Shown: positions 38,281-62,437 of the stretch, one piece after another
Layout of the letters: each line of letters starts with the position of its first letter
How positions within the stretch are numbered: position 1 is the stretch's first letter
Origin: Acidobacteriota bacterium
GTDB lineage: Bacteria > Acidobacteriota > Vicinamibacteria > Marinacidobacterales > Marinacidobacteraceae
Assembly (NCBI GenBank): GCA_022826825.1
Contig: JAJDUD010000024.1
Location: forward strand, 163,084 to 227,083
DNA length: 64,000 nt
Reading direction: 5' to 3'
The notes under the pieces: generated by a model
The model's database searches: none
The model's input: only the letters and a program-made list of their open reading frames with translations
What the model was told of the DNA's origin: nothing
Program-made: the position numbers and the translations under genes

Positions 38281-38729
38281 TGCGCGCGACCTCGTGGAGA
38301 ACGGCAGCCCTCCTGGCGGTCGGGTTCCTCGGCCTCGGGCGGGCGGAGGCGGCGACCGGCCGGTCCTTCCCCCCGGTCCGGCGGGGGGAGCAGCAGCCGG
38401 TGCGTGATCCGTTCCGGGGGCCGGGGGCGGGGGCGACCGCGCCGCGGCCGCCGGGGCTCGCCGGGGTCCGGGTGACGGAAGCCGTGATTCGGGGAATCGT
38501 TCGCTACGGGGTCCCGGCGGGCGCCGGGCTGCGGTCCGATGCTCCCGGCTGGGCGATTCTCGAGTCCCCTTCCGGAGAGGGATTCGTCGCGGCTCCGGGC
38601 GATCGGCTGCTGGACGGGGTCCTGGGGAGGATCGAAGCGGGCGGCGTCGTTTTCTGGCTGGGGGGGGATCCGGACCGCCCCGTCCATCGGCCGCTCGCGC
38701 GGCCCGGAGAACCCGAGGAGAAGCAATGA
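38280..38729 (+). CDS. pilP: PilP-like pilus assembly protein
   Basis: The ATG at 38280 overlaps the pilO stop. Signal peptide MRATSWRTAALLAVGFLGLGRAEA. Small beta-rich domain upstream of pilQ. Confidence 0.55.
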   Translation: MRATSWRTAALLAVGFLGLGRAEAATGRSFPPVRRGEQQPVRDPFRGPGAGATAPRPPGLAGVRVTEAVIRGIVRYGVPAGAGLRSDAPGWAILESPSGEGFVAAPGDRLLDGVLGRIEAGGVVFWLGGDPDRPVHRPLARPGEPEEKQ

Positions 38730-40444
38730 AAAACGTCAGGAACCTGGCACGGTCAAGAGTGGTCTGCGGCGGCGCCTTGCTGCTACTGGCGGTGTCCCCG
38801 GTCCCCGGGGCGACCCTGCTCCGGCTGATCACGGAGGGGAAGCTGCGTGCCCCGGCGGCCGCGGCGCTCTCGGACCGCTTCGAGGTGCTGATGCCCGGAG
38901 TGGATCTCTCGGCGGTCGCGGGATCGTGGGGGGTGGGGACCCCCGAAGTCCTCGAGGTGCGCGTCTCCCCGAAGGAGACGGAGGGCATCACCGTCGTCGC
39001 CGCCCCCGGGGTCGCGTGCACTCCCTCGCTGTTCGATGCGGGTCTCGAGATCGCCTGCCGGGCGCCGCCGGAGCCAGCCGTGGAGGCGGCGGGGCCGGCT
39101 GCCGCTGTCTCCGGCGAGGCGGCCGAACCCCGGGTCAGCCTTGATTTTCGGGACGCGGACCTCCGGGACGTGCTCCGCGTCCTGAGCGAGGTGAGCGGGC
39201 TCGATTTCGTGCTCCAGCCCGGGGTCGCCGGCCGGGTCTCGCTGCGGCTGAACGAGATTGCCTGGGAACGGGCATTGGGAATCGTCCTCCGGTCCCAGGG
39301 ACTCGGGCATGTCCTCGAGGACGGCGTGCTGCGGGTCGGGGCGGCGGACGAGCTGGCGGGCGAAGTGGAAGCGCGGCGGCGGCAGCAGGAGGCGCGGGAG
39401 CTCGCCGGCGAACTGATGACGTTCAGCCGCAACCTGGCCTACGTGCGTCCCGAGGAGGTCAGGGAGGTGCTCGAAGGCCGCCTGAGCGCGAGGGGTTCCC
39501 TCATCGCCGACCAGCGGACGGGAACCGTCCTGGTCGCGGACGTGGAAAGCCGCATCCAGGAGATCGAGGCGGTGCTGGACCTGCTCGACGTTCCGGTGCC
39601 GGGCGTGGAGATCGAGGCGCGTATCGTGCTGGCGACGCGAACGCTGAGCCGCCGGCTCGGCATCCAGTGGGGCGGGGGACTGGTGCGCGAACACACCGGG
39701 AAGAAGCTGCCGCAGTCCGTACGCATCGGTGCCGACGCCATCGGGGGCGCCACCTCGTCGTTTTCCACGGGAGCGCCCGCCGGCGGCGTGTCGGCCGCTC
39801 CCAACCAGGATGGCGAGCGCCGGGGCTACGGCGTCAATCTCCCCATCAGCGGATCTCCCACCGGGGCGCTCGGGATCGCGCTGGGCGCCCTGAACGGCGC
39901 CGCCCATCTCGACCTGGCGCTGAGCGCCGCCGAACGCAACGGCGAGGTGCGGATCCTGTCGGCTCCCCGCATCGTCGCCCAAAACGCCCGGCCGGCGACG
40001 ATCAAGCAGGGGGTGACCTTCCCGGTTCAGGTGGTGGCCAACAACACCGTCACGGTGCAGTTCCGGGACGCGGTGCTCGAACTCACGGTGACGCCGCAGG
40101 TCAGCCCCGAAGGGACGATCCTGCTCGACCTGACCGTCAGCAACGATGCCCTGGACTTCGGTCAGGCGGTGGGAGGGATTCCGAGCATCCTGACCCAGCA
40201 GGCCACCACCCGGGTGCGGGTGGACGACGGGGCCACGACGGTGCTGGGAGGCGTCTTCGCCACCCAGCAGTCGGAGGAGCGGGGCCGGGTTCCGGGTCTG
40301 CACCGGATTCCGCTCCTCGGACACCTGTTCCGGTCACGGGAGCGGAACCACCGCGACGAGGAACTGCTCATCTTCCTGACCCCGCGAATCCGCGCCGCCG
40401 GGGGGTCCCGAACCGTGGACGGCGCGGGGCGTTCTCCCCCCTGA
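38726..40444 (+). CDS. pilQ: type IV pilus secretin PilQ
   Basis: 572 aa. The secretin C-terminal domain ends ...VPGLHRIPLLGHLFRS...ELLIFLTPRI. N-terminal signal peptide. Confidence 0.85.
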   Translation: MKNVRNLARSRVVCGGALLLLAVSPVPGATLLRLITEGKLRAPAAAALSDRFEVLMPGVDLSAVAGSWGVGTPEVLEVRVSPKETEGITVVAAPGVACTPSLFDAGLEIACRAPPEPAVEAAGPAAAVSGEAAEPRVSLDFRDADLRDVLRVLSEVSGLDFVLQPGVAGRVSLRLNEIAWERALGIVLRSQGLGHVLEDGVLRVGAADELAGEVEARRRQQEARELAGELMTFSRNLAYVRPEEVREVLEGRLSARGSLIADQRTGTVLVADVESRIQEIEAVLDLLDVPVPGVEIEARIVLATRTLSRRLGIQWGGGLVREHTGKKLPQSVRIGADAIGGATSSFSTGAPAGGVSAAPNQDGERRGYGVNLPISGSPTGALGIALGALNGAAHLDLALSAAERNGEVRILSAPRIVAQNARPATIKQGVTFPVQVVANNTVTVQFRDAVLELTVTPQVSPEGTILLDLTVSNDALDFGQAVGGIPSILTQQATTRVRVDDGATTVLGGVFATQQSEERGRVPGLHRIPLLGHLFRSRERNHRDEELLIFLTPRIRAAGGSRTVDGAGRSPP

Positions 40445-47244: not shown

Positions 47245-48636
47245 TCAGCAGCCGAGCCCCTGGGACATCTGGGCGTAGCTGGTGAGGGGGACCGCGCACA
47301 TCCTGCTCCAGTCCGCCTTGTCGATGACGGGCCGGCGCAGCAACTCCAGCATCTCGTCGAACTTGCGGAGGGCGGCGCACCCCACCGCCTCGGGGTCCGC
47401 CGCCTGACGGTGTTTCGGCCAGGCCTGGTCACGAGCGTAGCGCCAGAACCTGCTGTCGTACCGGGAGCCGCAGGAATAGTGCCAGCCGACGAACAGGCCG
47501 TAGCGCAACATGTTGTCCACGAGAAACCGGTTGATCACCGGCGCGTCGCCCTCGAGATGCTCGGCCGGACGGTTCAGGCGTGTCTCGAGGACCATCCCGA
47601 TCTGGAACTGGGCGGACACGATCGCGGTGGCTTCGAGCGGCTCCATGAAGGCCGCCCGGTTGCCGATCCGGGCCACCGCGCCATCGTAGATCCGGCGGTG
47701 GACGAAGTTGGGAAACGGGATGACGGCGCGCGGCTCGAATTCCGTCACGCCGTCGGCCTCCAGGAACGCGTCGAAGTCCGTTTGGACTTCGTCCAGGCTG
47801 GAAACGTCGCGGTTGAAGATGTACCCACAGGAGGTGTGCGCTACGAGTGGGATGACGAAGATCCAGCCGTGGGGACGCGCCACCGCCCGGGTATAGGTGT
47901 GCTGCAGAACCGGACCGTCCGGTCCGTCCCCGATGATCGCGGGACAGCGCCGGATCACGGCGGTGTCGGTGGGGATGAACGGAATGTGGATGTGCCGGGC
48001 GGGATCGATTTCGCGGGGAAACCCGCGCGCATCGAAGACGAGGTCATAGCGCTCGGGGGCCCGGTCCTCGAAGGCCACTTCGGCGCCACCGTCCACCCGC
48101 TTGATCCCGGTCACGTTCGCGTCCACGTGGTGCGCACGCGTGCTTTCGTGCAGCAGGTCCGCCATCCGGTCGGCGGACAGGTGGTAGGCGTAGGAAACCT
48201 GCTGCGGCGTGAAGTAGTGGGTGAAGTCCCGATGGCGCCGTCCCCAACCCTCGAAAGCCACGCCGTACTTGCGGGTTCCCTTCAAGCGCTGTTGAACGGT
48301 CTCATGGGGCAGCTCCGTCAGTTGCTGCAGATGCTCGACCAGGCTCGGCCAGCTGCCTTCCCCGACCCCGATGACCGGAATGCGCGAGTCGTAGATGTGA
48401 TGCAGCTCGCGGTCGCCGCCGGGGGGAAGGCGCGTAACACTGGCCGCCGCCAGCGACCCCGCGGTTCCTCGCCCGACAACGGCGATCTTCCGGAGAGATT
48501 CGCTGCCCGTTCGGATCACCCTCGATGACTTCCACGGGGTTCGGTCGATGGTCCCCTGGGCGCGATGTCCGGATGTGCTGCGTGCGCCATTGCCGGGACG
48601 CGACACTAGCACCATCGCCTTGCGGGTCACGGACAT
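47245..48636 (-). CDS. flavin-dependent (tryptophan-type) halogenase family protein
   Basis: Track ORF of 463 aa (start uncertain). FAD motif VVGRGTAG. IGVGEGSWPSL (compare IGVGEATIPSL of Trp halogenases). RKYGVAFEGW lysine context. GWIFVIPL (variant of the WxWxIP motif). Confidence 0.7.
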   Translation of the reverse strand: MSVTRKAMVLVSRPGNGARSTSGHRAQGTIDRTPWKSSRVIRTGSESLRKIAVVGRGTAGSLAAASVTRLPPGGDRELHHIYDSRIPVIGVGEGSWPSLVEHLQQLTELPHETVQQRLKGTRKYGVAFEGWGRRHRDFTHYFTPQQVSYAYHLSADRMADLLHESTRAHHVDANVTGIKRVDGGAEVAFEDRAPERYDLVFDARGFPREIDPARHIHIPFIPTDTAVIRRCPAIIGDGPDGPVLQHTYTRAVARPHGWIFVIPLVAHTSCGYIFNRDVSSLDEVQTDFDAFLEADGVTEFEPRAVIPFPNFVHRRIYDGAVARIGNRAAFMEPLEATAIVSAQFQIGMVLETRLNRPAEHLEGDAPVINRFLVDNMLRYGLFVGWHYSCGSRYDSRFWRYARDQAWPKHRQAADPEAVGCAALRKFDEMLELLRRPVIDKADWSRMCAVPLTSYAQMSQGLGC

Positions 48637-48662
48637 GACCGGAGGACCGGCCGCCCCGTTCG

Positions 48663-48691
48663 TTGACGTTGGTACAGCGTCGTGTTACCCT
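48663..48691 (+). promoter_or_regulatory. candidate promoter of the RiPP precursor gene
   Basis: TTGACG (48663-48668), 17-nt spacer, TACCCT (48686-48691), about 60 nt upstream of the precursor ATG. An AAGGAGG ribosome-binding site sits at 48737-48743. Confidence 0.35.
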
Positions 48692-48750
48692 CGACACGGG
48701 AGTTGGCGTGGGCGTCGTTCGCCGGCGCGAGCAACCAAGGAGGAAACACC

Positions 48751-49002
48751 ATGAGAAACGGCGACGAGATGTTGCAGCAGATTGTCGAGAAGTCCGCCCT
48801 CGATGCGGACTTCCGGCGGCAGCTTCTGGCAGATCCGAAGAGCACCATTAGTGCGGAACTGGGGATCACGATTCCCGATTCCATGACCGTCAAGGTCCAC
48901 GAGAGCGACATGCAGACCGTGCATCTCGCGCTGCCCCCGGATCCGAACATCACCGAGGAGCAACTCGAAGCGATCTCGGCCGGCCTCTGCTGCTGCTGGT
49001 AG
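48751..49002 (+). CDS. NHLP (nitrile-hydratase-like leader peptide) family RiPP precursor, predicted core LCCCW
   Basis: ATG at 48751 with a strong RBS, 83 aa. IVEKSALDADFRRQLLADPKSTISAELGITIPDSMTVKVHESDMQTVHLALPP matches the NHLP leader. EEQLEAISAG matches the usual ...EELEAVAGG junction. It is followed by only LCCCW and a stop. Confidence 0.85.
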   Translation: MRNGDEMLQQIVEKSALDADFRRQLLADPKSTISAELGITIPDSMTVKVHESDMQTVHLALPPDPNITEEQLEAISAGLCCCW

Positions 49003-49042
49003 GTCCAACAACCGGTTCGTAGCCGGTCCCGACGGCAGTCGA

Positions 49043-49066
49043 CGGATACGGAGAGTTCCGTATCCG
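49043..49066. terminator. perfect 10-bp hairpin between the convergent precursor gene and the modification operon
   Basis: CGGATACGGA-GAGT-TCCGTATCCG followed by GGTTTCG. It lies between stop codons at 49002 (+) and 49189 (-). Confidence 0.5.
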
Positions 49067-49188
49067 GGTTTCGACGCCGGCTGAGCTGACCCCCCGGCCT
49101 CGCTCGGGGACGGGGAAGTCTGTGCTTGCCGCCGTCTCGCGGGGCGTCTCGAACTCAGGCGCGAGGTTGAGAGTGCCCGGACACCCGG

Positions 49189-50304
49189 CTAGGAGATCGC
49201 GCCGGAGAGCACCATGAACACGTAGGCCTTGGCCGCGCGAAGCTGGTTGCCGGACAGGACCAGCTTGACGTGGTGGATTCCACGTAGCAGGACATAGCGC
49301 CCGGACTTCGCAAAGAGCGTGGTCGGCCTCGAGACCCAGTCGGCAAGCGCGTCGAGCTTTTCCGGGAACACGAGCTCCTCGTGACCGAGGGCTTTGAGGA
49401 ACGGTTGCCAATCGGTGAGGCCGTCGAGCCAGTAGCGTGAGCCCTTCGTGTACCGCTGTTTGACGATGAGCGTCAGTCCGAGTGTGGGGCCGACGCCGTC
49501 TTCCAGTACGTCGATGTTCACGCCGCTTCTGACGATGTGCGCGCGCTCCTGGAAGCGGGAGATCACGGAGTGGACGGCCGGGAGTTCCCCCGGCCAACCC
49601 GTGTTCGCGAGATACGAACCTGCTTCCCGCTCCGACTGGAAACCCATGACCGCCAGGCGAATGGCGCGGGAGCGGGACGGGAACACACCGAACGAATCCA
49701 TGCGCGTATCTTCCGGTTGCGCCAGGTAGGCCCGTTCGACGTTGTCCCGCTCGGCGGGGGTCAATGCCCAGCCCACGCTGGAAGCGAGCGCGTCAACCAC
49801 CAGACGGACGTCCTTCGCCTGACCTCCGGCGCCGATGATCGGACGTTCCCCGGGCCGCAGGAAGATGCCGGGAAGTGAGTCCCCATCGTCCCGCCCAAGT
49901 CCGATGTCGAATTCCAGCATCAGTTTGCGGCCGACGATCTCGCGCAGCGGCGAGTTCTCGGCCTCCATCCGGCGGAACAGCCGCGCAATCACCCTCGCCG
50001 TCTCGTCTCCCTTCCCGCTCCGGACGCGCTCGGCGAAGAACGCCGCGGTCCGCGTCCCGCTCGCCAGGGAGACGCCCAGGTCCGCCCTTGGCGTCGCTTC
50101 ATGCAGCGGCAGTTCGAAGCCGAAGGGCAGGGCGCCCATCGTGATCGGGAGTTCGCCGGCGCGCTCGAGGATGAGCTCCCACTCCGGGTCGCCGATCAGA
50201 ACCGGCGAGACCCGGTTCCGGAAGTGGCGCAGCAGATCGCTCAGGGCGCCGCCTTCCACGGCGAGACGGTCCTCGGTGAGAGTGACTGCCTCGTCAAGTT
50301 CCAC
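49189..50304 (-). CDS. hypothetical protein, last gene of the RiPP operon (no motif recognised)
   Basis: 371 aa. GTG start with GGAGG 7 nt upstream, 10 nt after the cyclodehydratase stop. Alternating beta/alpha-looking segments ending ...HHVKLVLSGNQLRAAKAYVFMV. Confidence 0.7.
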   Translation of the reverse strand: MELDEAVTLTEDRLAVEGGALSDLLRHFRNRVSPVLIGDPEWELILERAGELPITMGALPFGFELPLHEATPRADLGVSLASGTRTAAFFAERVRSGKGDETARVIARLFRRMEAENSPLREIVGRKLMLEFDIGLGRDDGDSLPGIFLRPGERPIIGAGGQAKDVRLVVDALASSVGWALTPAERDNVERAYLAQPEDTRMDSFGVFPSRSRAIRLAVMGFQSEREAGSYLANTGWPGELPAVHSVISRFQERAHIVRSGVNIDVLEDGVGPTLGLTLIVKQRYTKGSRYWLDGLTDWQPFLKALGHEELVFPEKLDALADWVSRPTTLFAKSGRYVLLRGIHHVKLVLSGNQLRAAKAYVFMVLSGAIS

Positions 50305-50314
50305 CTCAGCCTCC

Positions 50315-52633
50315 TCACGCGATCACCGGTGCGGGGTTCAGGTCCGCTTCGGCAAGGGGATGTTCCAGGCGCCCCATGCGGACCGGCACGTCGTAAAGGC
50401 GCCCGGGAGCGAACCTTGCCCAGAAATGGCGCATGCCGGGCACGATGACCCGCACCACCGGCATCCCGATGTCGGGCCGGGTCTGGTCCAGCACCAGGAA
50501 CTCCATGCCCCTGGTTTCGACGAGCGAGCGGGCGTTCTCCACATCTTCCCGGGTGTCGGTCGTTTCGGACACCGGATACCGGGAGGCCTTCGAGGGAGGC
50601 TGGCCGGCGGCCGGCGTGAGCCAGGGACAATCGGCCAGCCGGCCCGTCTTCCACCACCGAAGCGCCAGCGGATCGTCAATCGTGGGCCCGCCGCCGCGCT
50701 TCCCCGGGTCCGGCAGCCAGGTAAGGCACTGGTTCAGTTCACAGAGCGCCCGGAGCGCCGCGATCCGCGGGTCGTCGTGGGCGCCGGCGCCGTAGATGAT
50801 GTCCTCGGTCGGCGCGGACGGCCGGCGCGAGAGCGCGACGAAGGTGGGAACGCCGATATCCGAGGTGACGTCGAGCATCCACAGCTCTCGCTCGCGGCCG
50901 GCGTAGTAGTCCGGGGCCGATGCCAGGTACGCGTCGTCGAAGCTCGACAGATCGACTGCGGGCGCGCGCAGCCGGTTGTACCACCAGATGGCGAACCCGT
51001 CGCGTTCCGCGAGTTCATAGAAACCCTGGAGGATCGCTTCCTCCAGCGTGTTCCCCGCGGCGCAGCCGTTGGAATCGGCGATCAGGTCCTGGGGCCCGCG
51101 CGCCTCGGCCGGCCTCGAATAGAGCATCGACGTCGGCAGATAGCGGTGCCGGCGCTGCGTCAGCGACCACACGGGGGTCCAGTCGATTGGCGCGTCGGGG
51201 TCGAGACGCGGGGGTACCACGTTGTAGGGATGGCCCTGCGCGTTGACGGCATCCGCATTGTCGAGCTGGCTGTCGCTGAACAGTTGCACGTCGTTGGGAT
51301 GGATCGCCTCGTCCTCCGCGGTGAACTCGCGGAACCGGCGCCGGACGCGGATTTCGTCACCCGAGCCGGCGCCCGAAACACGCTCGATCGCTTCGCACAG
51401 CGCGCTGACCCGGGATTGCTCCGCAGTGCTGCCCTTGCCGGCGCTCTTGCTGCGCAGGCTGCGCCGGAGCGAACTCAGGCTCCGGTAGCTCAGGGCAGGG
51501 TTGCTCCCGGCCCAATAGACGTGCAGCCAGGAGTCGCTCTCGTCCGTGGTACGCGTCAGCCAGGTCACCACTCCGCTCACCGGGCTCACCAGGTGGCGGT
51601 ACTTCGCCAGGGTGACCTCCGGCGGCACCGAGCGCGCGCCGCCGCTGTTGCGATGGGTTTTGGGGCTCGGTTGCAGAGCGAGTGGAACCGGCGGCCGGTC
51701 CGGGCGATAGAGCGCCGCGTCGCCGCAGGCCCGGCACTGCGGCCGGCGGCTTACCGGGTGCCGCGAGCTTCGAAAGGAACCGATGTCCATGGCGATCGCG
51801 TGGTCGTGGATCGGAGCCGCGTCAGACAGCACGATCCACTTGACCACCTCGGCCGCGATCAGCCCGCAGAGCGCTTCCAGCACGGCGGGCTGGGCGGCGA
51901 ACGGCCTGAAGGCAGCCTTCTCCCCCGCGGCGCTGCGCAGGAAACGGTGGACTTCCCGATGGCTGCCCAGCCGGTGCGCGAGACAGGCCCAGCAGGGTCC
52001 CCGGCGGTCCGCCCGAAAGACCGGGCCGAACAGCGGCTCCATGCCGCGGGGCCGCACCACGGTCCACGGCGCCCCCGCTTCGAGCCGGCGACCATTCGCC
52101 TCGCCAAGGCGCGCTTCGAGATAGTCGTCGCAGACCAGGACGGTGAGGTCCGGGTCCCGAGGCCCGACCGCCGCGCCGTTCGCTTCCAGATGCCGGGCGA
52201 ACCGGCCGTCGTCCCCTTCCACGGCGATGCGCGATTCCGCGAGCCGCTGCTCGACCCAGCGTGGCGAGGCGCCCAGCGACGACCAGTAGGCCGCCCGGCG
52301 CCGGTCCAGCGCGTGATCGGCGGAGACGACGTAGCCCCTCGCGGACAGCGAAGCCACGGCGGTGAGCACCTCTGCCGCGGAATGGGTCCCCTCGAGGGCC
52401 GTGACAATCTCGTCGGACGGATGGCGGCCGTCGAGCAGTGGCAGCAGCGTGCGATACAGCTCGCCGTGCAGGAGGGTGTTGAAGGACTCGGAGACCAGCA
52501 GGGTCTGCCGTTCGCCGAGGTCCCGGAACTCCAGGTGCGGGGCCAGCGCCGGAAGCCCGACGAGGCCCTGGTCGGCGGGAGTGGTGCGGGTCAGGATTCC
52601 CTGCCGGGAAACGCCGCCGGTCTGCGCTGGCAT
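50315..52633 (-). CDS. fused TOMM-type cyclodehydratase (E1-like/docking domain + YcaO domain)
   Basis: The ATG at 52633 (MPAQTGG...) lies within track ORF 50315..52783. N-terminal half has the GPCWACLAHRL and PQCRACG Cys pairs of the cyclo_dehyd_2 domain. C-terminal half is YcaO/SagD-like (SAGKGSTAEQSRVSALCEAIER..., ADSNGCAAGNTLEEAILQGFYELAERD, VVRVIVPGM). Confidence 0.85.
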   Translation of the reverse strand: MPAQTGGVSRQGILTRTTPADQGLVGLPALAPHLEFRDLGERQTLLVSESFNTLLHGELYRTLLPLLDGRHPSDEIVTALEGTHSAAEVLTAVASLSARGYVVSADHALDRRRAAYWSSLGASPRWVEQRLAESRIAVEGDDGRFARHLEANGAAVGPRDPDLTVLVCDDYLEARLGEANGRRLEAGAPWTVVRPRGMEPLFGPVFRADRRGPCWACLAHRLGSHREVHRFLRSAAGEKAAFRPFAAQPAVLEALCGLIAAEVVKWIVLSDAAPIHDHAIAMDIGSFRSSRHPVSRRPQCRACGDAALYRPDRPPVPLALQPSPKTHRNSGGARSVPPEVTLAKYRHLVSPVSGVVTWLTRTTDESDSWLHVYWAGSNPALSYRSLSSLRRSLRSKSAGKGSTAEQSRVSALCEAIERVSGAGSGDEIRVRRRFREFTAEDEAIHPNDVQLFSDSQLDNADAVNAQGHPYNVVPPRLDPDAPIDWTPVWSLTQRRHRYLPTSMLYSRPAEARGPQDLIADSNGCAAGNTLEEAILQGFYELAERDGFAIWWYNRLRAPAVDLSSFDDAYLASAPDYYAGRERELWMLDVTSDIGVPTFVALSRRPSAPTEDIIYGAGAHDDPRIAALRALCELNQCLTWLPDPGKRGGGPTIDDPLALRWWKTGRLADCPWLTPAAGQPPSKASRYPVSETTDTREDVENARSLVETRGMEFLVLDQTRPDIGMPVVRVIVPGMRHFWARFAPGRLYDVPVRMGRLEHPLAEADLNPAPVIA

Positions 52634-52665
52634 TCGGCTTTTCCGCGCTGGATCAGCCGGCCCCC

Positions 52666-53985
52666 TCAGGCGCGCGAACGGGAACCAACCTGCAAGACCT
52701 CGACGAGCCGCTCCAGCGCTTCGATGCAGAACGCGGACGTGACGGCTTCGGAGCCGTGCCCGATCTGCCCCACCGTGCCCCACTTCAGGGTCTGGTCACC
52801 GAACGCGAGAAGCTCCGGCCAACTGCCGTCCTCCTGCTGGGAACCCAGCAGTCCTTCCGCCTGGCGCTTCGCGTCGATGCCGTCGAGGCGTCCGATGTTG
52901 TGGAGCGCCGACACCGCCTGGGCGGTCCGCAGCACGTTGCCGAATCCGCCCCGGCCGTCCCCGAGTTCCAGGATGCGATCCGCGAGCACCGGCCGCAGTC
53001 GATCCAGGGCCGGCCGCGCCCGGAGCAGCGCGCGTGACACCGCATAGTAGATCGAGACCTTGTCGGGGTACCACTTGGACGAGCCCTCGACGCCTCCTTC
53101 GGCGATGAGCGCCTCCAGCCAGCGCTGGGCATCCCGGGTTTGTGGGTGGTCGCCAAGATAGGCGATGACGTTCGCATTGACGACGGGGTCGGCTTCGATG
53201 CGAAACGTCGACACCACGCTCGGCTCGTCCTCCGCGAGCACCCAGGTCATGAAACGGCCTTCCTCGTCGCGATTCGCCAGCATGGACGGCACGTTCCTCC
53301 CCAGCAGGATCCAGGGGTGGGTTCCGATGACCATGGAGCACAGCGCCGTGCTGTCGAGGTCCTGGGGGAGATGGCGGTAGTACCGCCAGAGTCCGGGATG
53401 TTCGATGGTGTCGGCCAGGTAGGCCCGGGTGGCGGCGCAGATGGCCCGCGCCCGCGGTTCAGCGCAACATTCGAGGGCGAGCACGCAAAAGGCCGAAACG
53501 AAGGGCGGTCTTTCGAAATGCCGTGGAACGTCCGGATTGCCGACGTTGAACCGGATGCAGTGCCAGGCTCCGTTTTCGTCGATCGTGGATTCCAGGAAAT
53601 CGAGACCCCGGCGGATGCCCGCCCGACCCGCGTCGGCGAGTGCCTCGGGGGTGGCCGCGTCCTTTCCGGCCCTCGCCCGTCCGGGGGCGGGTGGGCGGAG
53701 CGGCGGGGCGGGGTCGTGGAGCGTCTTCTTGAGAAACTCCAGTGACCCGGCGCCCGTCCGGGCCGCGCTGCGCTCGGCCGCGCTGAGTCTGGGGGGCGGC
53801 GGCAACACCACGTGCGTTGTGGCGTAGCTCTCTTCGTGTACGTGGATCGCGTGATCATCGGGGAGCCTCACGCCGAATTCCGCTTCGACCGTTTCCTTTG
53901 GCGCCCGAAGCAGGCGTTCGCGAAAGTCGCGGTCCCGGGAGGCTCTCGACACGAGGACATCGGCGGCCTCCAGCGGTTTCTTCAT
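52666..53985 (-). CDS. NHLP-leader-like domain fused to a squalene-cyclase/prenyltransferase-repeat (alpha/alpha toroid) domain
   Basis: ATG at 53985 (RBS GAGGG), 439 aa. Residues 1-65 align without gaps to the precursor leader (DFR.RLL..PK.T..AE.G...PD....VHE....H..LPP.P). The rest carries QW-type repeats (LDFLESTIDENGAWH, RDEEGRFMTW, GDGRGGFG, LLGSQQEDGSWPE). Confidence 0.8.
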   Translation of the reverse strand: MKKPLEAADVLVSRASRDRDFRERLLRAPKETVEAEFGVRLPDDHAIHVHEESYATTHVVLPPPPRLSAAERSAARTGAGSLEFLKKTLHDPAPPLRPPAPGRARAGKDAATPEALADAGRAGIRRGLDFLESTIDENGAWHCIRFNVGNPDVPRHFERPPFVSAFCVLALECCAEPRARAICAATRAYLADTIEHPGLWRYYRHLPQDLDSTALCSMVIGTHPWILLGRNVPSMLANRDEEGRFMTWVLAEDEPSVVSTFRIEADPVVNANVIAYLGDHPQTRDAQRWLEALIAEGGVEGSSKWYPDKVSIYYAVSRALLRARPALDRLRPVLADRILELGDGRGGFGNVLRTAQAVSALHNIGRLDGIDAKRQAEGLLGSQQEDGSWPELLAFGDQTLKWGTVGQIGHGSEAVTSAFCIEALERLVEVLQVGSRSRA

Positions 53986-54038
53986 GGACGGCCCTCGTTC
54001 GGGTGGGGTTTCATCAACTGCACCGGGGCGCCTTCGGA

Positions 54039-56984
54039 TCAGGCGATCTGCCTCTTGACCAGTTCGCGGAATACCCCGTCCACCTCCATGAGTTCCCTGA
54101 AGGAGCCGCACTGGACCACTCTTCCGGCCCGCAGGACATAGATGCGGTCGGCCTGTTCCAGCGTGGACAGGCGGTGGGCGATGACGAGCCGCGTGGAGGT
54201 CAGGGCCGCGAGGTTCCGCATGACCATGGCCTGGCTTTCGTTGTCCAGCCAGTTGGTCGCTTCGTCGAACAGCATGATCCGCGGGCTGCCGATCACCGAA
54301 CGGGCGATCGTGACGCGCTGGCTCTCGCCGCCGGAAAGGACCGCCCCGGTGGTGCCCACCATGGTCATCAGGCCCATCGGCATGGCCTTGATTTCGTCTT
54401 CGACCCTGGCGGCGCGGAGCGCCTTCCAAACCTCCTCGCTCGTCACCTGATCGTGGTGGCTGACCACGTTGTCCCACAGATCCTGGGGATGCAGACGAAC
54501 GGACTGGGGGACGGCGCCGATGCGCCGGCGGACCTGCTTCAGGTTCAGGTGCCGCAGGTCACGTCCGTCGTAGTACACCGCGCCGGCGGTCGGCCGGTGG
54601 ACCCCCAGCGCAAGCTGGAACAGGGTGCTCTTGCCGGCGCCCGACGCGCCGGCGATCGCGATGAACTCACCGGGGCGGGCGTGAATCGTGACGTCGTCGA
54701 GAATCAGGGGTCCGTCGTCGTCATAGCGGAAGGAAATGCGGTCGAACAGGATGTCGCCGCCCAGGTGTTCCACCGGCTCGCCCTCGACATCGGTCTCGGG
54801 GACGGCGGCGAGCAGCGGACGCATCTGCTCGAACGCCGGCAGCGTGGCGGCAATGGCGCCGACGGAATCCCCGAGCCGCGCCACCGAGGCCTGGAACGTG
54901 AGAAAGACCGTGTAGACCACCAGGAAATCGCCGACCGGCACGTTGCGGTCCCCCGTCGTCACCACCGCGAAGAGCAGCGCTCCGGCGGCCAACAGGGGGA
55001 GTGCGGCGCCGAACGCGCGGGAGTGTCCTTCGAGCGCGCCGAGGTCGAGTTCCGCGCGTTTCTGCTCCCGATAGTCCCGCGCCCACATCGCGAAGGCCGA
55101 TCCTTCCGCGCTCTCGATGCGCAGCTTGGCGATGCCCCCCACGATCTGAAACAGCCGGGCCGCTACGCGCCGGGCGGCGCTGATCATCCGCCCATGGGGT
55201 GCGGTCTGGCGCCACCCGAGGACCAGCGTGATCAGCAGCGACGCCAGGCTGAAGACGAGCGCGATGGTCCCCAGGCGGGCGTCGTAGAAGAAGACCAGGC
55301 CCAGGACCGGAAGCAGGAAAATGCAGGACAGCAGGCTGTCCGCGACCGCTCCCTGCAAGCCGTCGCGCAGATTCTGGAACGTCATTCCCGACATGGCCAG
55401 ATCGCTGGACGGAAGGGGGCGCAAAACGCTCGGGGGCAGGCGCATGAGGCGGTCCCAGAAGGCGGCCTCGACCCGGGAAGCTCCCCGGCCCTCGAGCCGC
55501 ATCATCGCCGAGCTCTGGAACAGGTGCAGCAGGGCGCCGAGCAGGCCGAACCCCGCCACCGTCGCGGCCACGGCATAGAGCGCTCCCGCGTTTCCGCCTG
55601 CCGCCACGTGATTCGCGACGAATCCAAGCGCGAGCGCCGGAACCAGTTTGATCAGTCCGCCCGGCAGCCCGGCCGCCGTTAGCCGCGCCAGGTCCCCGGC
55701 CGATCCGTGGAGGGCGATCCTGAAGAGGTCCGCCGGCTGCACGCGCCGGGATGGCAGTGGCCGATAGAAGACCCAGGCTTCCTCTCCCAGGGCCCCGGCG
55801 CGGTCCGCGCCCAGCCGGACGCTGCGCTTGCTCGCCGGATCGATCTCCCGGTAACGCCCGAACGTTCCCGGCAGGAGCGCCACGGGCCGGCCGTCCTCGG
55901 CGCGGAACGCCAGCATCGCGTTGCTGTCGCCGCGCCACCAGTCGCCCTCGGCCTTGAACCGCACGCGGCGGGCCCGCACCCCCGACGCGTCGAGGATGTC
56001 CACGAGGCCGACCGGGGCATCGGCCGACACTCCCGAACGCACGGGAATCCTGAAGTCGATTCCCTCGTGGCGGCCGATGATTTCGAGCGCCTCCGCCAGC
56101 GCCGTGACTTCGGCACTCGCATCCCGGTCCAGCGGCAGGTCATAGATGTTGAAGAGCCGCTGCCGCGCCGTCTTTTCGGCCGCGCGCCGGCTCGTGGTCT
56201 GGGCGCGTTCGAGATTCGCCTCGTCGACGGTCGCCAGCCGCCGGTTATGGCGTTCCAGGGCGAAAGCAGTCCGGTGGAAGGAAGCGAGCCCGGAAAGCAG
56301 GGCGCCCCGCTGCGCCAGCGTTTCGGTCGATTCGCCGGAAAGGGTGGCCTCGCCGAACACGGTCAGCCAACTGGTCCGCGTCAGGGGCACCGGGACTGCG
56401 GATGCGCCGCCGCTCTCCGCCCGCTCCGCCGGATCGGCGATGCCCATGTAGAGGGTCGCTCCCCGCGGGGGTTCGGATACCCACACCACCGAGCGGCGCA
56501 CCGACAGCGTACCGGGCGTCAGGGTTTGCGTCAGGCCCGGTTCCGCAAGCGCGGTCGCCCGCGGCAGGCGGCTCGCAAAACGCGAGAGGGTGTCCGTGAC
56601 GGCGGACAGCCAGGCGTCTGTCTGTTCCGCCAGCTCCGCCGGATGGACCTCCGACAACAACGACGCCGGGAGGCGCCTCAGAAGGGTGCCGGGCGAGCCC
56701 TTGGCGATCACGCTGAGCCGGGTGTCGTCGTCACCCCCGCCCTCGTCGGGCGGGACGCCCGGCAACAGGCAGCCGGACTCGCGCCGAAGCAGGTGCTGCG
56801 GCGCCGCGCGCTCGACGCCGCCCTGGAATTCCACCAGGAACAGGTTGACCGCACCCCGATCGATGAACCAGACACTGTCCGCGTCGTCCAGCTGCACCGG
56901 CAGGTTGCCGGTGCAGGGCACGGGCGCACCGCAGCGGGCGGCGAGTGCCGCCATGGACGTGGTTCTCGGTCCCGCGTCGTTCAT
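54039..56984 (-). CDS. NHLM-type bacteriocin export ABC transporter, permease/ATPase subunit without an active peptidase domain (ABC2)
   Basis: 981 aa. Long N-terminal extension of about 470 aa, then a six-TM exporter domain. Walker A GASGAGKST, signature LSGGESQR, Walker B IMLFDEAT. The stop/start overlaps the upstream gene (ATGA). Confidence 0.8.
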   Translation of the reverse strand: MNDAGPRTTSMAALAARCGAPVPCTGNLPVQLDDADSVWFIDRGAVNLFLVEFQGGVERAAPQHLLRRESGCLLPGVPPDEGGGDDDTRLSVIAKGSPGTLLRRLPASLLSEVHPAELAEQTDAWLSAVTDTLSRFASRLPRATALAEPGLTQTLTPGTLSVRRSVVWVSEPPRGATLYMGIADPAERAESGGASAVPVPLTRTSWLTVFGEATLSGESTETLAQRGALLSGLASFHRTAFALERHNRRLATVDEANLERAQTTSRRAAEKTARQRLFNIYDLPLDRDASAEVTALAEALEIIGRHEGIDFRIPVRSGVSADAPVGLVDILDASGVRARRVRFKAEGDWWRGDSNAMLAFRAEDGRPVALLPGTFGRYREIDPASKRSVRLGADRAGALGEEAWVFYRPLPSRRVQPADLFRIALHGSAGDLARLTAAGLPGGLIKLVPALALGFVANHVAAGGNAGALYAVAATVAGFGLLGALLHLFQSSAMMRLEGRGASRVEAAFWDRLMRLPPSVLRPLPSSDLAMSGMTFQNLRDGLQGAVADSLLSCIFLLPVLGLVFFYDARLGTIALVFSLASLLITLVLGWRQTAPHGRMISAARRVAARLFQIVGGIAKLRIESAEGSAFAMWARDYREQKRAELDLGALEGHSRAFGAALPLLAAGALLFAVVTTGDRNVPVGDFLVVYTVFLTFQASVARLGDSVGAIAATLPAFEQMRPLLAAVPETDVEGEPVEHLGGDILFDRISFRYDDDGPLILDDVTIHARPGEFIAIAGASGAGKSTLFQLALGVHRPTAGAVYYDGRDLRHLNLKQVRRRIGAVPQSVRLHPQDLWDNVVSHHDQVTSEEVWKALRAARVEDEIKAMPMGLMTMVGTTGAVLSGGESQRVTIARSVIGSPRIMLFDEATNWLDNESQAMVMRNLAALTSTRLVIAHRLSTLEQADRIYVLRAGRVVQCGSFRELMEVDGVFRELVKRQIA

Positions 56985-59194
56985 CGGCCTGACTTGACCA
57001 GCCTGTAATACGTGCCGTCCCGGTCGGCGATCAGATCGTCGTGCGTGCCGCGCTGCACCTGGGCGCCCTTGTCGAGCACGATGATCTCGTCGCAGTCCCG
57101 CACCGTACTCAGCCGGTGCGCCACGATCAGGCAGGTGACGCCGCGGCGCCGCAGGGCATCGTCGACGGTTTCCTCGGTGGCGGCGTCGAGCGCACTGGTC
57201 GCCTCGTCCAGAACGAGCACCGTCGGGTTCCCCACCAGGGCCCGCGCGATCTCCAGGCGCTGCCGCTGGCCGCCGCTGAAGTTCACGCCGCCTTCCTCGA
57301 CGAGAGTCGCGTATCCGTGCGGCCGGAGCAGGATCTCGTCATGGATCGCGGCGTCTCGGGTCGCGGCGCTGATGACTTCATCGGGAACGGCCGGGTTCCA
57401 CAAGGTGATGTTGTCGCGGAGGGTCGCGGAAAAGAGAATGGCGTCCTGATCCACCATGGAAATCGAGCGTCGCAGCACTTCGGCGGGAATCTCGTCGCGC
57501 GCGCGGCCATCGAAGCGGATCTGGCCCGACCAGGGCTGACAGATTCCGGAAACGAGACGCGCCAGAGTCGACTTGCCGGACCCGCTCGGCCCCACCACGG
57601 CAACCCGCTGCCCCGGCTCGATCGCCAGGTTGAAGTCCTTGATCAGGGGTTGCCGGCTCTTGTTGTAGCCGAAGGTGACGTTGCGCAATTCAAGCCTGCC
57701 GGCGAGCTGCAGCCGGCCGTCCAAGGTGGCGATGGACTCCGATTCGGGACTCCGGCGGGTGAAGGCGGGGTCCTTCGCCGTCTTCGAGACGTCTTCCAGT
57801 CGCTGCAGATCGGTCTCCAGCGCGTGGCGTTTCTCGGCGAACTCGAGGAAACGCCCGACCGGCGTCAGGAACATCTCGGCCAGGATGAAGAACCCGACGA
57901 GGGACCCCAGGGTCATTTCGCCGGCGATGACCAGGCTCCCGCCGACGCCCAGGATCGCCGCGGCGCGCAGGGCGCCGATCAGGCCCGGAAACGCCGTGTT
58001 GAGGGCCCCGAGTTCGGAGTACTGCTGGCGCGCGCGCAGTTCGCGCGCCTGCTGCCCGCTCCAGCGCGAGAAGAACCGGTCGTCCGCGCCGGTCATGCGC
58101 AGGTTGTCCGCGCTACTCAACATCTGCATGCCGACGCCGATCAGCAATCCCTGTTCGCGCCTCATCGCCTGGCTTCGGACGGTCCGCAGCGCGCCCAGGA
58201 AGTGGACTCCCGTCGCGTGCAGGAGGGCCAGCAACGCCACGACCAGGGTGAGCGTCACGTCGTACGCCAGCATGGCGATGACGAGCACCGCGCTCATCGC
58301 CATGTCGATGACGAGCACCAGGAACTGCTCCGTCAGGTTCTTGGCGATTCTGTCGATGGACGAGACCCGGTCCGTCAGATCGCCTACCAGGCGGTGCTCG
58401 AAGAATGCCACCGGCAAACGCAGCAGCCGCGACAGGCCGCGGTTGAAGCCGCTGACCGAAATCCGTACCGCCAGCCGCTTCAGGAACCGGTGCTTCAGCA
58501 GCGACAGGACGTACACCAGGACGCCGCCGCCCAGCAGCGCCGCCACCAGTCCGCCCCAGGGCCCGTGGTTGGCCACCAGGTCGTCCACGAACACCCCGAC
58601 CGACGCGGGGACCACCAGGGCAATCAGCGTCAGCATGAGCGCGCAGGCCATCACTCCGGTGAGCACGCTCCACGATCCGGCAAGCAGGCCCCGCAACTGC
58701 TCGAACAGACCAGGCCGTTCGCCACCGGGACGGAAGCCGGGGCCGCGCTGGAATCGCAGCGCGATCCCACTGAAACTCTTGCTGAACTCCTCGGCGGAGA
58801 GTCTGCGCCGCCCCGTGGCCGGGTCATTCAGATAGAAACTGCGGCCATCGAACCCTTCGAGGACCAGGAAGTGGCTGAACTGCCAGAACAGGATCAGGGG
58901 TAAAGGCAGCTTCGGGAGCTGGTCCGCGCGAACGCTGAGTCCGCCCACTTCGAGCCCGTAGTGCCGGGCGGCGCGCGCGATGCTGGCGGCGCTGCTTCCG
59001 TCCCGGCTCACCTCGCATTTCTCCCGCAGTTGGGTGAGCGGCACCCAGCGGCCGAAGTAACCCAGTACGCTCCCGAGGCAGGCGGCCCCGCATTCCGATG
59101 CGTGCATCTGCAGCACAACGGGGGTGGTTACCCGTCGTTTCGGGAAGCCCGGCGCCGCCTTGGCGCCGTCGCCCCGCGAAGGGCCGCTCCGCAT
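56981..59194 (-). CDS. NHLM-type bacteriocin export ABC transporter with N-terminal C39 peptidase domain (ABC1)
   Basis: 737 aa. C39 catalytic context QMHASECGAACLG and later FSHFLVLEG...YLNDP. Walker A GPSGSGKST, signature FSGGQRQR. Confidence 0.85.
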   Translation of the reverse strand: MRSGPSRGDGAKAAPGFPKRRVTTPVVLQMHASECGAACLGSVLGYFGRWVPLTQLREKCEVSRDGSSAASIARAARHYGLEVGGLSVRADQLPKLPLPLILFWQFSHFLVLEGFDGRSFYLNDPATGRRRLSAEEFSKSFSGIALRFQRGPGFRPGGERPGLFEQLRGLLAGSWSVLTGVMACALMLTLIALVVPASVGVFVDDLVANHGPWGGLVAALLGGGVLVYVLSLLKHRFLKRLAVRISVSGFNRGLSRLLRLPVAFFEHRLVGDLTDRVSSIDRIAKNLTEQFLVLVIDMAMSAVLVIAMLAYDVTLTLVVALLALLHATGVHFLGALRTVRSQAMRREQGLLIGVGMQMLSSADNLRMTGADDRFFSRWSGQQARELRARQQYSELGALNTAFPGLIGALRAAAILGVGGSLVIAGEMTLGSLVGFFILAEMFLTPVGRFLEFAEKRHALETDLQRLEDVSKTAKDPAFTRRSPESESIATLDGRLQLAGRLELRNVTFGYNKSRQPLIKDFNLAIEPGQRVAVVGPSGSGKSTLARLVSGICQPWSGQIRFDGRARDEIPAEVLRRSISMVDQDAILFSATLRDNITLWNPAVPDEVISAATRDAAIHDEILLRPHGYATLVEEGGVNFSGGQRQRLEIARALVGNPTVLVLDEATSALDAATEETVDDALRRRGVTCLIVAHRLSTVRDCDEIIVLDKGAQVQRGTHDDLIADRDGTYYRLVKSGR

Positions 59195-59195
59195 G

Positions 59196-61237: not shown

Positions 61238-61258
61238 TCTCCGGGATCGGCGGCGAGC

Positions 61259-62377: not shown

Positions 62378-62437
62378 GTAGCCGGCAATGAAACGCACGC
62401 GGCATTCCCCACCCTCCCGCACAACCTGCGCGTCACG

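Follow-up and report, generated by a model that had tools for sequence, protein, structure and literature searches.

An SrpE orthologue with an LCCCW core in a Vicinamibacteria-type sponge symbiont, and a possible prenyltransferase-cyclase pair among its neighbours

Background

The srp ("sponge-derived RiPP proteusin") clusters were reportedly described by Nguyen et al. in J Am Chem Soc in 2021 (143:10221). Their precursor SrpE carries the core LCCCW, the three cysteines of which are turned into thiazolines by the YcaO enzyme SrpC before SrpI, a flavin halogenase, brominates the Trp at the C-terminus of the still leader-bound peptide (PMC10858898, PMC10286304). Bromination by SrpI depends on the leader and is specific for C6 of the indole, and in the SrpE motif LTEEQL the exchanges L67A and L72A lower SrpI activity (PMC10858898 supplement). 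When the reaction is run in E. coli SrpC modifies SrpE only partly (PMC10286304), and that all three thiazolines form in vivo is an assumption. For leader removal the follow-up studies relied on LahT150, a heterologous peptidase, and on a chimera that contains GG. The srp precursor gene is described as 252 bp long, its core as LCCCW, and the consensus of its motif in sponge metatranscriptomes as ITEEQL. In sponge microbiomes srp clusters rank with the RiPP loci that are most abundant and most strongly transcribed. The SrpI-type brominase is already in use as a biocatalyst for peptide cross-coupling, the srp natural product itself is called cryptic, and several conserved genes of the clusters have been left as 'unknown'.

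The MprE/MprC/MprD system of Methylovulum psychrotolerans, reportedly described by Nguyen et al. in ACS Chem Biol in 2022, resembles the locus analysed here in its NHLP leader, its L(X)4L motif and a YcaO enzyme that installs azol(in)es. It differs in its GG junction, in cores that are longer and vary, in a dehydrogenase, MprD, that leads to azoles, and in lacking a halogenase. MprC and MprD fully process an LCCCW core that is grafted on the Mpr leader; with the leader of SrpE, MprC does not work. Two further systems act on Trp. PalX of Paenibacillus alvei is an NHLP precursor whose conserved C-terminal Trp is prenylated by PalQ, and the mpp cluster (MppE/MppC/MppI), of the Nif11 lanthipeptide type, has both an SrpI-like brominase and a Trp prenyltransferase with a beta-barrel that depends on the leader; neither of them has a YcaO protein or an LCCCW core. 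Finally, NctPC and ChrPC are prenyltransferase-cyclase maturases (Hubrich et al., Chem 2024, summarised in PMC13290415). In that summary NctPC is an ABBA prenyltransferase with low similarity to cyanobactin prenyltransferases joined to an MstE-like class II cyclase, and acts on a RiPP Trp.

Results and discussion

An orthologue of SrpE and its relatives

The precursor gene occupies positions 48751-49002 of the forward strand of the window, as we call the whole analysed stretch of 64,000 nucleotides. It starts with the ATG at 48751, spans 252 bp and encodes 83 aa, the last five of which, specified by CTC TGC TGC TGC TGG and followed by a TAG stop at 49000-49002, are Leu-Cys-Cys-Cys-Trp; the C-terminus reads ...EEQLEAISAG-LCCCW-stop. 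The encoded protein is an orthologue of SrpE, the NHLP-leader (proteusin) precursor of the srp clusters, and is as such already known. It is identical with published SrpE in 70 of 83 positions, when the SrpE leader given in the supplement of PMC10858898 is joined to its reported LCCCW core, and the boundary between AISAG and the core is the same in both proteins. The window moreover shares with the published system the 83-aa length and 252-bp gene of an NHLP precursor, the (I/L)TEEQL motif, an adjacent SrpC-type fused YcaO, an SrpI-type halogenase with Lys84, NHLP-type ABC exporters and its presence in MAGs from sponge microbiomes across many phyla. There are 13 substitutions in the leader relative to SrpE, and the L(X)4L motif of the window begins with Ile in place of Leu, the Ile variant being the metatranscriptome consensus. 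The Acidobacteria cluster of the window also lacks the desaturase/GlnE-like gene that most other loci have. All of these differences are within normal orthologue variation.

A database search returned 698 homologues of the precursor, and the 120 listed among them are 83-94% identical with it and end in GLCCCW without exception (120/120). Similarly, each of the 80 genomic loci that were fetched encodes an 83-aa protein with the terminus SAGLCCCW-stop, so that the stop codon is no sequencing error and the terminus no unconserved one. Across these loci hardly any variation is seen in the last 34 residues. The preliminary description of the locus had proposed a core of only five residues, and this proposal is supported by the sequence, by the end of the NHLP family model TIGR03793 at Gly78 and by the termini of all 200 inspected precursors (120 listed homologues and 80 loci). 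What did not hold was its remark on atypical A/T-ending codons: the GC3 of the precursor gene is 0.82 as compared to 0.83-0.90 in the neighbouring genes, and A/T-ending codons make up 15 of 83 (p = 0.18 at the pooled rate).

Relatives of the precursor are carried by 305 species genomes. The 80 fetched genomes are all MAGs, come from at least six phyla, and many of them bear names from sponge studies; in their loci the srp-type cluster is conserved across phyla. Both SB0661_bin_8, an Acidobacteria MAG, and Vicinamibacteria MAGs are syntenic with the window at 92-97% amino acid identity, and the host genome is of the Vicinamibacteria (Acidobacteriota) sponge-symbiont type.

The region 3' of the precursor gene contains a strong hairpin (Table 1), with calculated energies of -30.3 kcal/mol over 55 nt and -57 kcal/mol over 120 nt (ViennaRNA). 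For the 100 nt downstream of the precursor the median z across the 80 loci is about -2 when mononucleotide shuffles serve as the reference. The hairpin is a possible terminator or transcript stabiliser; it has no T-tract itself, and a consensus scan around the precursor found no T-tract terminator. A sigma-70 promoter scan of the same region gave nothing either; for this phylum both scans are uninformative. When the window was searched in six frames for further CCCW or NHLP ORFs, only the NHLP domain of the fusion protein discussed below was found.

Table 1. Positions of the precursor elements and neighbouring cluster genes in the window
Feature	Position	Strand	Basis
SrpI-type flavin-dependent tryptophan halogenase (by family and motifs)	47245..48519	-	PF04820 Trp_halogenase, 1.5e-42
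Shine-Dalgarno-like AAGGAGG, 7 nt 5' of the precursor ATG	48737..48743	+	sequence read
NHLP (nitrile-hydratase-like) leader, SrpE-type, residues 1-78	48751..48984	+	TIGR03793, SrpE identity, 8tb1
ITEEQL, I/L(X)4L recognition motif, residues 67-72	48949..48966	+	invariant in 80 loci
Core Leu-Cys-Cys-Cys-Trp	48985..48999	+	sequence, NHLP model end, homologues, literature
Strong hairpin in the gap where the precursor gene and the 371-aa gene converge	49033..49079	+	ViennaRNA
371-aa conserved protein, predicted ABBA (PT-barrel) aromatic prenyltransferase fold	49189..50304	-	AF2, Foldseek
SrpC-type cyclodehydratase: winged-helix/RRE, E1-like leader-binding and YcaO parts	50315..52633	-	772 aa from ATG 52633
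439-aa fusion: NHLP domain (aa 1-78), Pro-rich linker, predicted class II terpene-cyclase-like (alpha/alpha)6 toroid	52666..53985	-	AF2, Foldseek
Subunit 2 of the NHLP-type export ABC transporter, lacking a peptidase domain	54039..56984	-	TIGR03797, 8e-200, aa 295-980
NHLP-type export ABC transporter subunit 1, N-terminal C39 domain	56981..59194	-	TIGR03796, 4.7e-252; PF03412, 1.8e-33
Short HlyD-like membrane-fusion/secretion protein, 178 aa	59196..59732	-	weak TIGR03794 (2.5e-5), PF13437

Predicted cyclodehydration, bromination and export

The window holds a complete srp cluster. Besides the precursor it encodes a halogenase, a fused YcaO protein, an HlyD-like protein and two ABC exporter proteins of the NHLP type. 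The cyclodehydratase is matched by PF02624 (6.6e-95), by TIGR03604 (261 as compared to a cutoff of 219) and by TIGR03882 (1.3e-38), and an independent gene call (L081) gives the same 772-aa protein. In the first step of maturation the 78-residue NHLP leader would dock the peptide on this fused RRE/E1-like/YcaO protein, which would then cyclodehydrate Cys80-82 to three contiguous thiazolines, a reaction that has been demonstrated for SrpE with SrpC and for the LCCCW core with MprC/D. Pfam and NCBIfam searches of the cluster genes from 47245 to 59732 revealed no SagB-type FMN dehydrogenase of the kind that converts azolines to azoles. With a cluster of this composition thiazolines rather than thiazoles would be expected as the outcome of the second step, in agreement with what has been published.

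The third step would fall to the halogenase. Its ORF, which is divergent from the precursor, reaches up to an ATG at 48636, yet the GTG at 48519 is the more likely start: with it the catalytic Lys becomes Lys84, as in the published SrpI numbering (PMC10858898). The protein has the GxGxxG and GWIFVIP motifs, and its best match in the PDB is MibH (5uao, 6e-23); by its family, its motifs and Lys84 it is of the SrpI type. It would bind the I/L(X)4L motif of the leader and brominate the Trp at C6, as shown for SrpI. A halogenase lies near the precursor in 44 of the 80 loci; about 45% of the loci have none within 10 kb, and modifications may therefore vary between loci. The product chemistry put forward in the preliminary description agrees with what the literature states, and in part shows by experiment, for SrpE, namely in the core, the double-glycine-type junction (with AG for GG), the up to three thiazolines and the Trp, but it had overlooked this halogenase on the minus strand (47245 to 48519 or 48636). 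Its likening of the product to metal chelators and DNA binders is speculative. The LCCCW finding is a rediscovery of a published system, for which the core, the thiazolines and the bromination of the Trp had already been described. For the brominated, tri-thiazoline, non-prenylated pentapeptide we calculate an [M+H]+ of 651.088 (79Br); a C15 or C20 prenyl group would raise this to 855.275 or 923.338.

In the fourth step the C39-bearing ABC subunit, with its partner subunit and the HlyD-like protein, would cut after Ala77-Gly78 and export the pentapeptide. The translation of subunit 1 contains ASECGAACL with its Cys, and subunit 1 is presumed to be the leader peptidase; family membership and the position of the junction motif point to cleavage after Gly78 and to export. 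Both ABC subunits score slightly under the equivalog cutoffs (838 as compared to 853 for TIGR03796 and 666 as compared to 709 for TIGR03797), and subunit 2 carries an N-terminal extension of about 290 aa outside its TIGR03797 match. The HlyD-like protein is short, and its length of 178 aa is kept in 22 loci.

Two genes with predicted prenyltransferase and cyclase folds

The remaining two genes of the cluster lie on either side of the YcaO gene. For the 371-aa protein, searches of Pfam, NCBIfam and PDB sequences with the single sequence as well as with profiles of close and of distant relatives were empty, and no sequence-level link to the named prenyltransferase families was found. The assignment of a function therefore rests on fold prediction. 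The AF2 model (pLDDT 85.9, pTM 0.86) has 82 Foldseek matches at E<=1e-3, the best with an E of 5e-6, at moderate TM-scores of 0.4-0.55; the 50 matches listed are all prenyltransferases of the DMATS/NphB/CloQ/AmbP type. The family comprises 745 representatives when clustered at 50% identity and has no Pfam model.

The toroid of the fusion protein is modelled less well (pTM 0.69 and pLDDT 68 for the whole protein, with many low-confidence stretches). In Foldseek it matches 8pak, MstE (6sbe) and drimenyl-PP/drimenol synthases with E-values of 2e-7 to 1e-5 and moderate TM-scores. Its QW motif aligns to SHC. The acid motif, placed by alignment to DVDDT in a homologue that stands alone, is D209-L-D211-S-T (DLDST) and not the canonical DxDD. 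Compared with solved cyclases, the single sequence of the toroid found only a chance match to a P450, and its profile only the SHC QW repeat and a non-catalytic PDLDTT. The NHLP part of the fusion protein is 36% identical with the precursor leader (E 9e-18), scores under the TIGR03793 cutoff at 47.4 bits, and has neither a cleavage motif nor an I/L(X)4L motif. That the fusion protein is a second substrate of the C39 exporter is unlikely, as it lacks this motif and the -4/-7/-12 register, though its Gly78 is invariant.

How, then, could these two proteins take part in maturation? In a fifth step the 371-aa protein would prenylate the terminal Trp, and the NHLP-fused cyclase-like protein would cyclise the attached isoprenoid, in analogy to the fused enzyme NctPC. 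Judged by predicted fold and gene context, the 371-aa protein probably has the first of these activities, and the same kind of evidence suggests that the cyclase-like protein probably has the second. The two proteins have the same two predicted folds as NctPC, and are likened to it by its description and by models rather than by sequence. Different from NctPC, they are encoded by two separate genes with the YcaO gene between them, and the cyclase-like protein has an N-terminal NHLP domain and DLDST in place of DxDD. Of the other Trp prenyltransferases, PalQ has a trans-IDS-like fold, unlike the ABBA fold predicted for the 371-aa protein. As the predicted folds of the two genes and their NHLP/Trp context resemble NctPC, a cyclised isoprenoid on the product is possible. 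Carried to its full extent, this reading would make the mature srp product a peptide-terpenoid hybrid and the two genes a split prenyltransferase-cyclase of the NctPC type that travels with srpE across phyla, its cyclase being unique in its fusion to an NHLP leader-like domain of its own; in this form we regard it as tentative and rather unlikely.

A serious contender, although in our estimate somewhat short of an even chance, is that the product is of the published type only, a tri-thiazoline 6-bromo-Trp pentapeptide that carries no isoprenoid. The barrel and the toroid would then have non-catalytic or unrelated roles, as leader-binding scaffold or chaperone, in immunity or regulation, or in the synthesis of a separate small terpenoid. 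The lack of a sequence match between the 371-aa protein and any prenyltransferase family, the moderate Foldseek TM-scores of both proteins and the non-canonical acid motif of the toroid would all fit such a product, and the NHLP domain fused to the toroid could be a mere docking or decoy module. Moreover, bromination and cyclodehydration were reconstituted without either of the two proteins (PMC10858898, PMC10286304). Against this reading, the 371-aa gene adjoins the precursor in 73 of 80 loci and is its most constant neighbour, and distant relatives of the 371-aa protein, too, are found in NHLP loci (4/4), some of them without any YcaO. The short NHLP cores beside these relatives have a Trp at the C-terminus in five of seven cases, with one penultimate and one internal Trp in the other two. 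In addition, the residues conserved throughout the 371-aa family lie nearly all on the barrel strands, and the toroid and the 371-aa family are adjacent in other genomes and in one case naturally fused (a Rosetta-stone protein, found on a truncated contig). Finally, NctPC, as summarised in PMC13290415, provides a precedent for exactly such an enzyme pair on a RiPP Trp.

If the peptide-terpenoid reading applies, the 371-aa family would represent a broad unnamed class that tailors NHLP-RiPPs at or near the C-terminal Trp. Prenylation or cyclisation is not stated for srp clusters in the follow-up literature, although a prior description is possible, and the view of two neighbouring srp genes as a lipid-attaching and a lipid-cyclising enzyme pair is possibly new.

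The junction between leader and core

The NHLP leader model TIGR03793 matches the precursor with 69.0 bits (cutoff 50.9), aligning residues 6-78 to model positions 4-77 of 77. As the model ends exactly at Gly78, LCCCW alone remains past it. The best PDB match of the leader is 8tb1, the solved NHLP chimera of the Mpr system, and in this alignment Ala77-Gly78 of the precursor sits opposite the Gly-Gly of the 8tb1 leader. Double-glycine leaders have hydrophobic residues at positions -4, -7 and -12 from the junction, and in the precursor these positions are held by Ile74, Leu72 and Ile67. Further upstream, NITEEQL at residues 66-72 is the predicted binding site of SrpI.

It seems improbable to us that the leader is instead cut upstream of Gly78, so that part of the invariant ...PPDPNITEEQLEAISAG is kept and the product is longer than five residues. 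The near-invariance of the precursor does span its last 34 residues and not merely the last five, as is also seen in the metatranscriptome literature, but the conservation of ITEEQL is explained by the published role of this motif in SrpI binding. Likewise, the Ala-Gly junction differs from the textbook GG/GA/GS, yet both the family model and 8tb1 end the leader at Gly78 and the hydrophobic residues fit the double-glycine register. The NHLP precursor PalX is cut by cell lysate at a non-GG site, and native cleavage is not documented in the srp follow-up literature. The present cluster, however, has a dedicated C39-ABC exporter, and the authors of the srp system take LCCCW as the core (PMC10858898, PMC10286304).

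That the ORF is a degenerate fragment of nitrile hydratase alpha, to which its best Pfam match (NHase_alpha, 1.1e-8) might point, or a chance ORF, is ruled out by family scores and conservation, as the equivalog model gives 30 bits against a cutoff of 250 while the NHLP model is above its cutoff, as the gene has a ribosome binding site, a constant length and terminus across hundreds of genomes and, next to it, all the genes expected for maturation and export, and as transcript levels of the srp precursor are reported to be high in sponge metatranscriptomes.

Conclusions

Taken together, we are highly confident that the locus as a whole is best explained as an srpE orthologue in a Vicinamibacteria-type sponge symbiont, with a maturation as described for SrpE and a probable further step, by predicted folds and gene context, in which an isoprenoid would be attached and cyclised. 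The value of the present analysis lies mainly in the correct annotation of a complete srp cluster in a symbiont of this type. If the prenyltransferase and cyclase reading were true, the mass and structure predicted for metabolomics would change, it would be explained why the srp compound has escaped detection, and a large unnamed enzyme family would join the RiPP toolbox.

The LCCCW precursor and its family

The preliminary description had predicted from the sequence a full-length leader followed by a core of only five residues, LCCCW, which would carry up to three thiazolines. Direct reading of the core gives CTC TGC TGC TGC TGG and then TAG, and these codons close an ORF of 83 codons which is preceded by AAGGAGG seven bases before its ATG and is translated as MRNGDEMLQQIVEKSALDADFRRQLLADPKSTISAELGITIPDSMTVKVHESDMQTVHLALPPDPNITEEQLEAISAG-LCCCW. 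The NCBIfam model of NHLP leader peptides, TIGR03793, matches the precursor with 69.0 bits (cutoff 50.9), and since the alignment of profile positions 4-77 of 77 with residues 6-78 reaches the last profile positions at residue 78, the leader model comes to its end precisely at Gly78. Ala77-Gly78 moreover aligns opposite the Gly-Gly of the solved NHLP chimera 8tb1, and on these grounds both the sequence and the leader/core boundary had been described correctly.

The interpretation, too, was essentially right, but the family is a known one and the halogenase of the cluster had gone unmentioned. Precursors of this type have already been described, and the LCCCW core is the defining feature of the published and experimentally studied srp (sponge-derived RiPP proteusin) family (Nguyen et al., JACS 2021, as cited in later papers). 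When compared with a reference for the published precursor SrpE, whose leader was taken from a construct in the PMC10858898 supplement and whose LCCCW core is the one reported there, the window precursor is identical at 70 of 83 positions and has the same boundary between AISAG and the core. According to a sponge metatranscriptome preprint, the srp precursor gene is 252 bp long and highly transcribed and encodes an LCCCW core, with ITEEQL as consensus; the window gene likewise has 252 bp and ITEEQL.

A search of a 5.8-billion-protein collection returned 698 precursor homologues, and among the 120 matches listed identity is 83-94%, the length is 83 residues in 117 and the terminus is GLCCCW in every one. 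In a genome scan with one genome per species, relatives of the precursor were present in 305 genomes, and all 80 loci that were fetched encode 83 residues ending in SAGLCCCW-stop, with residues 50-83 almost invariant. The terminus is thus conserved and the stop codon is no sequencing error, and with both of these objections ruled out the original observation holds. What did not stand is the suggestion that the A/T-ending codons are atypical: GC3 is 0.82 in the precursor as compared to 0.825 to 0.895 in neighbouring genes and 0.83 in the other two small-family genes, and A/T-ending codons number 15 of 83 (p = 0.18 at the pooled rate). Compared with the rest of the cluster the gene shows no sign of foreign codon usage, and its lower overall G+C (0.60) results from a leader rich in Asp, Glu, Lys, Ile and Thr.

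Three stem-loops directly follow the precursor stop (-57 kcal/mol over 120 nt), one of them with a 10-bp perfect stem, and the 100 nt downstream of the precursor have an unusual degree of structure in about half of the 80 loci. This region may be linked to the reported very high transcript level.

Gene cluster and genomic setting

The genes of the cluster were defined by GC3-based gene calling and family scans, and the gene lengths were the same in a second, independent call made on a contig from ENA that has an identical 371-aa protein.

Features of the window and of related loci
Feature	Position	Strand	Remarks
Very long ORF	10695-16493	-	1932 aa, high GC3; a 1876-aa ORF lies on the opposite strand
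Type IV pilus / type II secretion genes	38726-40444	+	flank the cluster
Flavin-dependent Trp halogenase	47245-48636	-	divergent from precursor
Precursor	48751-49002	+
LCCCW core	48985-48999	+
Stem-loops	49003-49122	+	10-bp perfect stem around 49040-49071
371-aa protein	49189-50304	-	no family
Winged-helix / leader-binding / YcaO fusion	50315-52633	-	772 aa; TIGR03604 261 bits, cutoff 219
NHLP domain-toroid fusion	52666-53985	-	439 aa
NHLP-type ABC exporter	54039-56984	-
NHLP-type ABC exporter	56981-59194	-	C39 peptidase domain
Short HlyD-like protein	59196-59732	-
Type IV pilus / type II secretion genes	60113-63377	+	flank the cluster
797-aa gene of another srp locus	L009:13840-16230	-
NHLP precursor loci beside distant 371-aa homologues	L083:5464-7092		
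	L084:924-2562		
	L085:853-7092		
	L088:6001-8022		
P0478	L089:1-1350		toroid part and 371-aa-family domain

The best solved relative of the halogenase is the lanthipeptide chlorinase MibH, and with translation from GTG 48519 the catalytic lysine would be residue 84, as in the published numbering of the srp halogenase SrpI. The ORF opens at ATG 48636, with its first 39 codons not conserved in other loci; the GTG start would place GxGxxG near the N-terminus and widen the divergent intergenic region to 231 bp, versus 114 bp from the ATG. Gene calls and family scans revealed no azoline dehydrogenase in the cluster, which fits the published product with thiazoline, not thiazole. Residues 1-294 of the second ABC transporter subunit (54039-56984) form an N-terminal extension, about 290 residues in length, to which neither TIGR03797 nor any Pfam family extends.

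FolD, CoaE and CTP synthase encoded in the flanks share 92-97% identity with their counterparts in Vicinamibacteria/Acidobacteria MAGs, including SB0661_bin_8, which have the srp cluster at the same place. The insertion point adjoins CTP synthase and is common to related Acidobacteria MAGs; biotin carboxylase and carrier are also among the flanking housekeeping genes. A secretin lies upstream of the cluster, and a PilT-like ATPase, a PilC-like platform protein and a prepilin-like ORF lie downstream. Identity of the biosynthetic proteins is 65-90% in a comparison that spans Acidobacteriota, Alpha- and Gammaproteobacteria, Binatia, Chloroflexota and Gemmatimonadota, a spread that matches the published picture of srp clusters in many sponge symbionts. 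In most srp loci the YcaO and NHLP-toroid genes are separated by an additional 797-aa gene; in most loci from outside the Acidobacteria the equivalent gap measures about 2.4 kb. In the product, an N-terminal di-iron membrane domain that resembles fatty-acid desaturases and AlkB (PF00487, 8e-26) is combined with a GlnE-like nucleotidyltransferase region. The gene is absent from the window and from its closest relatives among the Acidobacteria.

A predicted prenyltransferase and a predicted terpene cyclase

The most constant neighbour of the precursor (73 of 80 loci) is the 371-aa gene, whose product has no match in Pfam, NCBIfam or PDB sequences, profiles included. When 1.84 billion representatives of clusters formed at the 50%-identity level were searched with a profile, this unnamed family gave 745 matches at E <= 1e-3. 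The AlphaFold2 model built with 27 homologues is confident (pLDDT 85.9, pTM 0.86) and consists of five beta-beta-alpha-alpha repeats. Foldseek found 82 PDB matches at E <= 1e-3, and all 50 of those listed are ABBA/PT-barrel aromatic prenyltransferases (TM 0.4-0.55), including 6-DMATS, DMATS1, PriB, IptA, CymD, TleC, NphB, CloQ, EpzP, AmbP1/3 and FamD1. Residues conserved in the wider family (Glu64, Asp75, Glu131, Tyr132, Asp133, Arg211, Arg216, His345, Lys347, Lys359 and Tyr361) sit on or immediately beside the predicted strands, a placement that would fit a barrel binding diphosphate and indole.

In the 439-aa protein an NHLP domain, 36% identical to the precursor leader (E 9e-18), is followed by a proline-rich linker and a toroid. 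The domain lacks the ITEEQL...AG segment, and the cleavage and I/L(X)4L motifs are absent. An enzyme with its own leader-like domain is unusual, and the domain might bring the putative cyclase to those partners that bind the precursor. The toroid model (pTM 0.69) resembles in Foldseek single-domain class II terpene cyclases, namely Cystobacter 'SHC' (8pak, 2e-7), MstE (6sbe, 3e-6) and drimenyl-diphosphate and drimenol synthases. Its QW motif aligns with that of squalene-hopene cyclase and its DLDST is invariant.

Four members of the 371-aa family with 25-30% identity were looked up; each sits in an NHLP-RiPP locus that shares the export system of the window, and two of the four loci have no YcaO. 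Following the GG site, five of the seven cores in these loci end in Trp (FTSVGGPIW, FTTGNNPLW, YSFNEPW, LPDMSW and FYYDW), in GNQVFCSGWL Trp is penultimate, and in the remaining, longer core it is internal; the five are short and Trp-ending like LCCCW, and the cysteines are not shared. In L085, which has three precursors and YcaO, a 334-aa stand-alone toroid homologue (40% identity to the window toroid, E 7e-71) immediately precedes the 371-aa-family member, and its canonical D-V-D-D-T aligns with D209-L-D211-S-T of the window protein. L083 has in addition a WelO5-type Fe/2OG halogenase-like gene and a deaminase, and L088 has PhyH and FAD_binding_4 genes. In the database protein P0478, a single example on a 5'-truncated contig, one reading frame contains both a 371-aa-family domain and the C-terminal part of a toroid, which has the QW motif; judged by its sequence, the protein is a natural fusion of the cyclase-prenyltransferase type. 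It is followed by a HAD hydrolase gene.

Proposed pathway

For the srp family it has been reported that SrpI depends on the leader and brominates indole C6, that the excised core is no substrate of SrpI, and that the YcaO enzyme SrpC modifies SrpE only partly in E. coli (PMC10286304). According to a 2026 review (PMC13290415, on Hubrich et al., Chem 2024), NctPC, which has prenyltransferase (P) and cyclase (C) domains, first geranylgeranylates a Trp in a ribosomal peptide, after which it cyclises the isoprenoid. PalQ targets the C-terminal Trp of an NHLP precursor for prenylation, and MppC is a leader-dependent beta-barrel prenyltransferase whose cluster also has an SrpI-like brominase. Because of these precedents, together with the predicted folds and the gene context, we suggest that a split P + C pair is most likely present in the srp cluster. 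A search of the literature beyond the primary srp and NctPC papers found no paper that connects prenyltransferases or terpene cyclases with srp, proteusin or LCCCW clusters.

The YcaO enzyme, guided by the leader, would cyclodehydrate the three cysteines to thiazolines and the halogenase, leader-dependent via the L(X)4L motif, would brominate the terminal Trp at C6, both as shown in the literature for the family. Judging from fold and context, the 371-aa protein may prenylate this Trp and the toroid may cyclise the isoprenoid. The C39 domain, by its family membership, would cut after Ala77-Gly78 ahead of export; at -4, -7 and -12 the precursor has hydrophobic residues, in keeping with the double-glycine register. 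What remains of interest is the fold-based assignment of two conserved unknown genes, and the putative prenyltransferase/cyclase pair is a testable prediction about the still-cryptic srp natural product.
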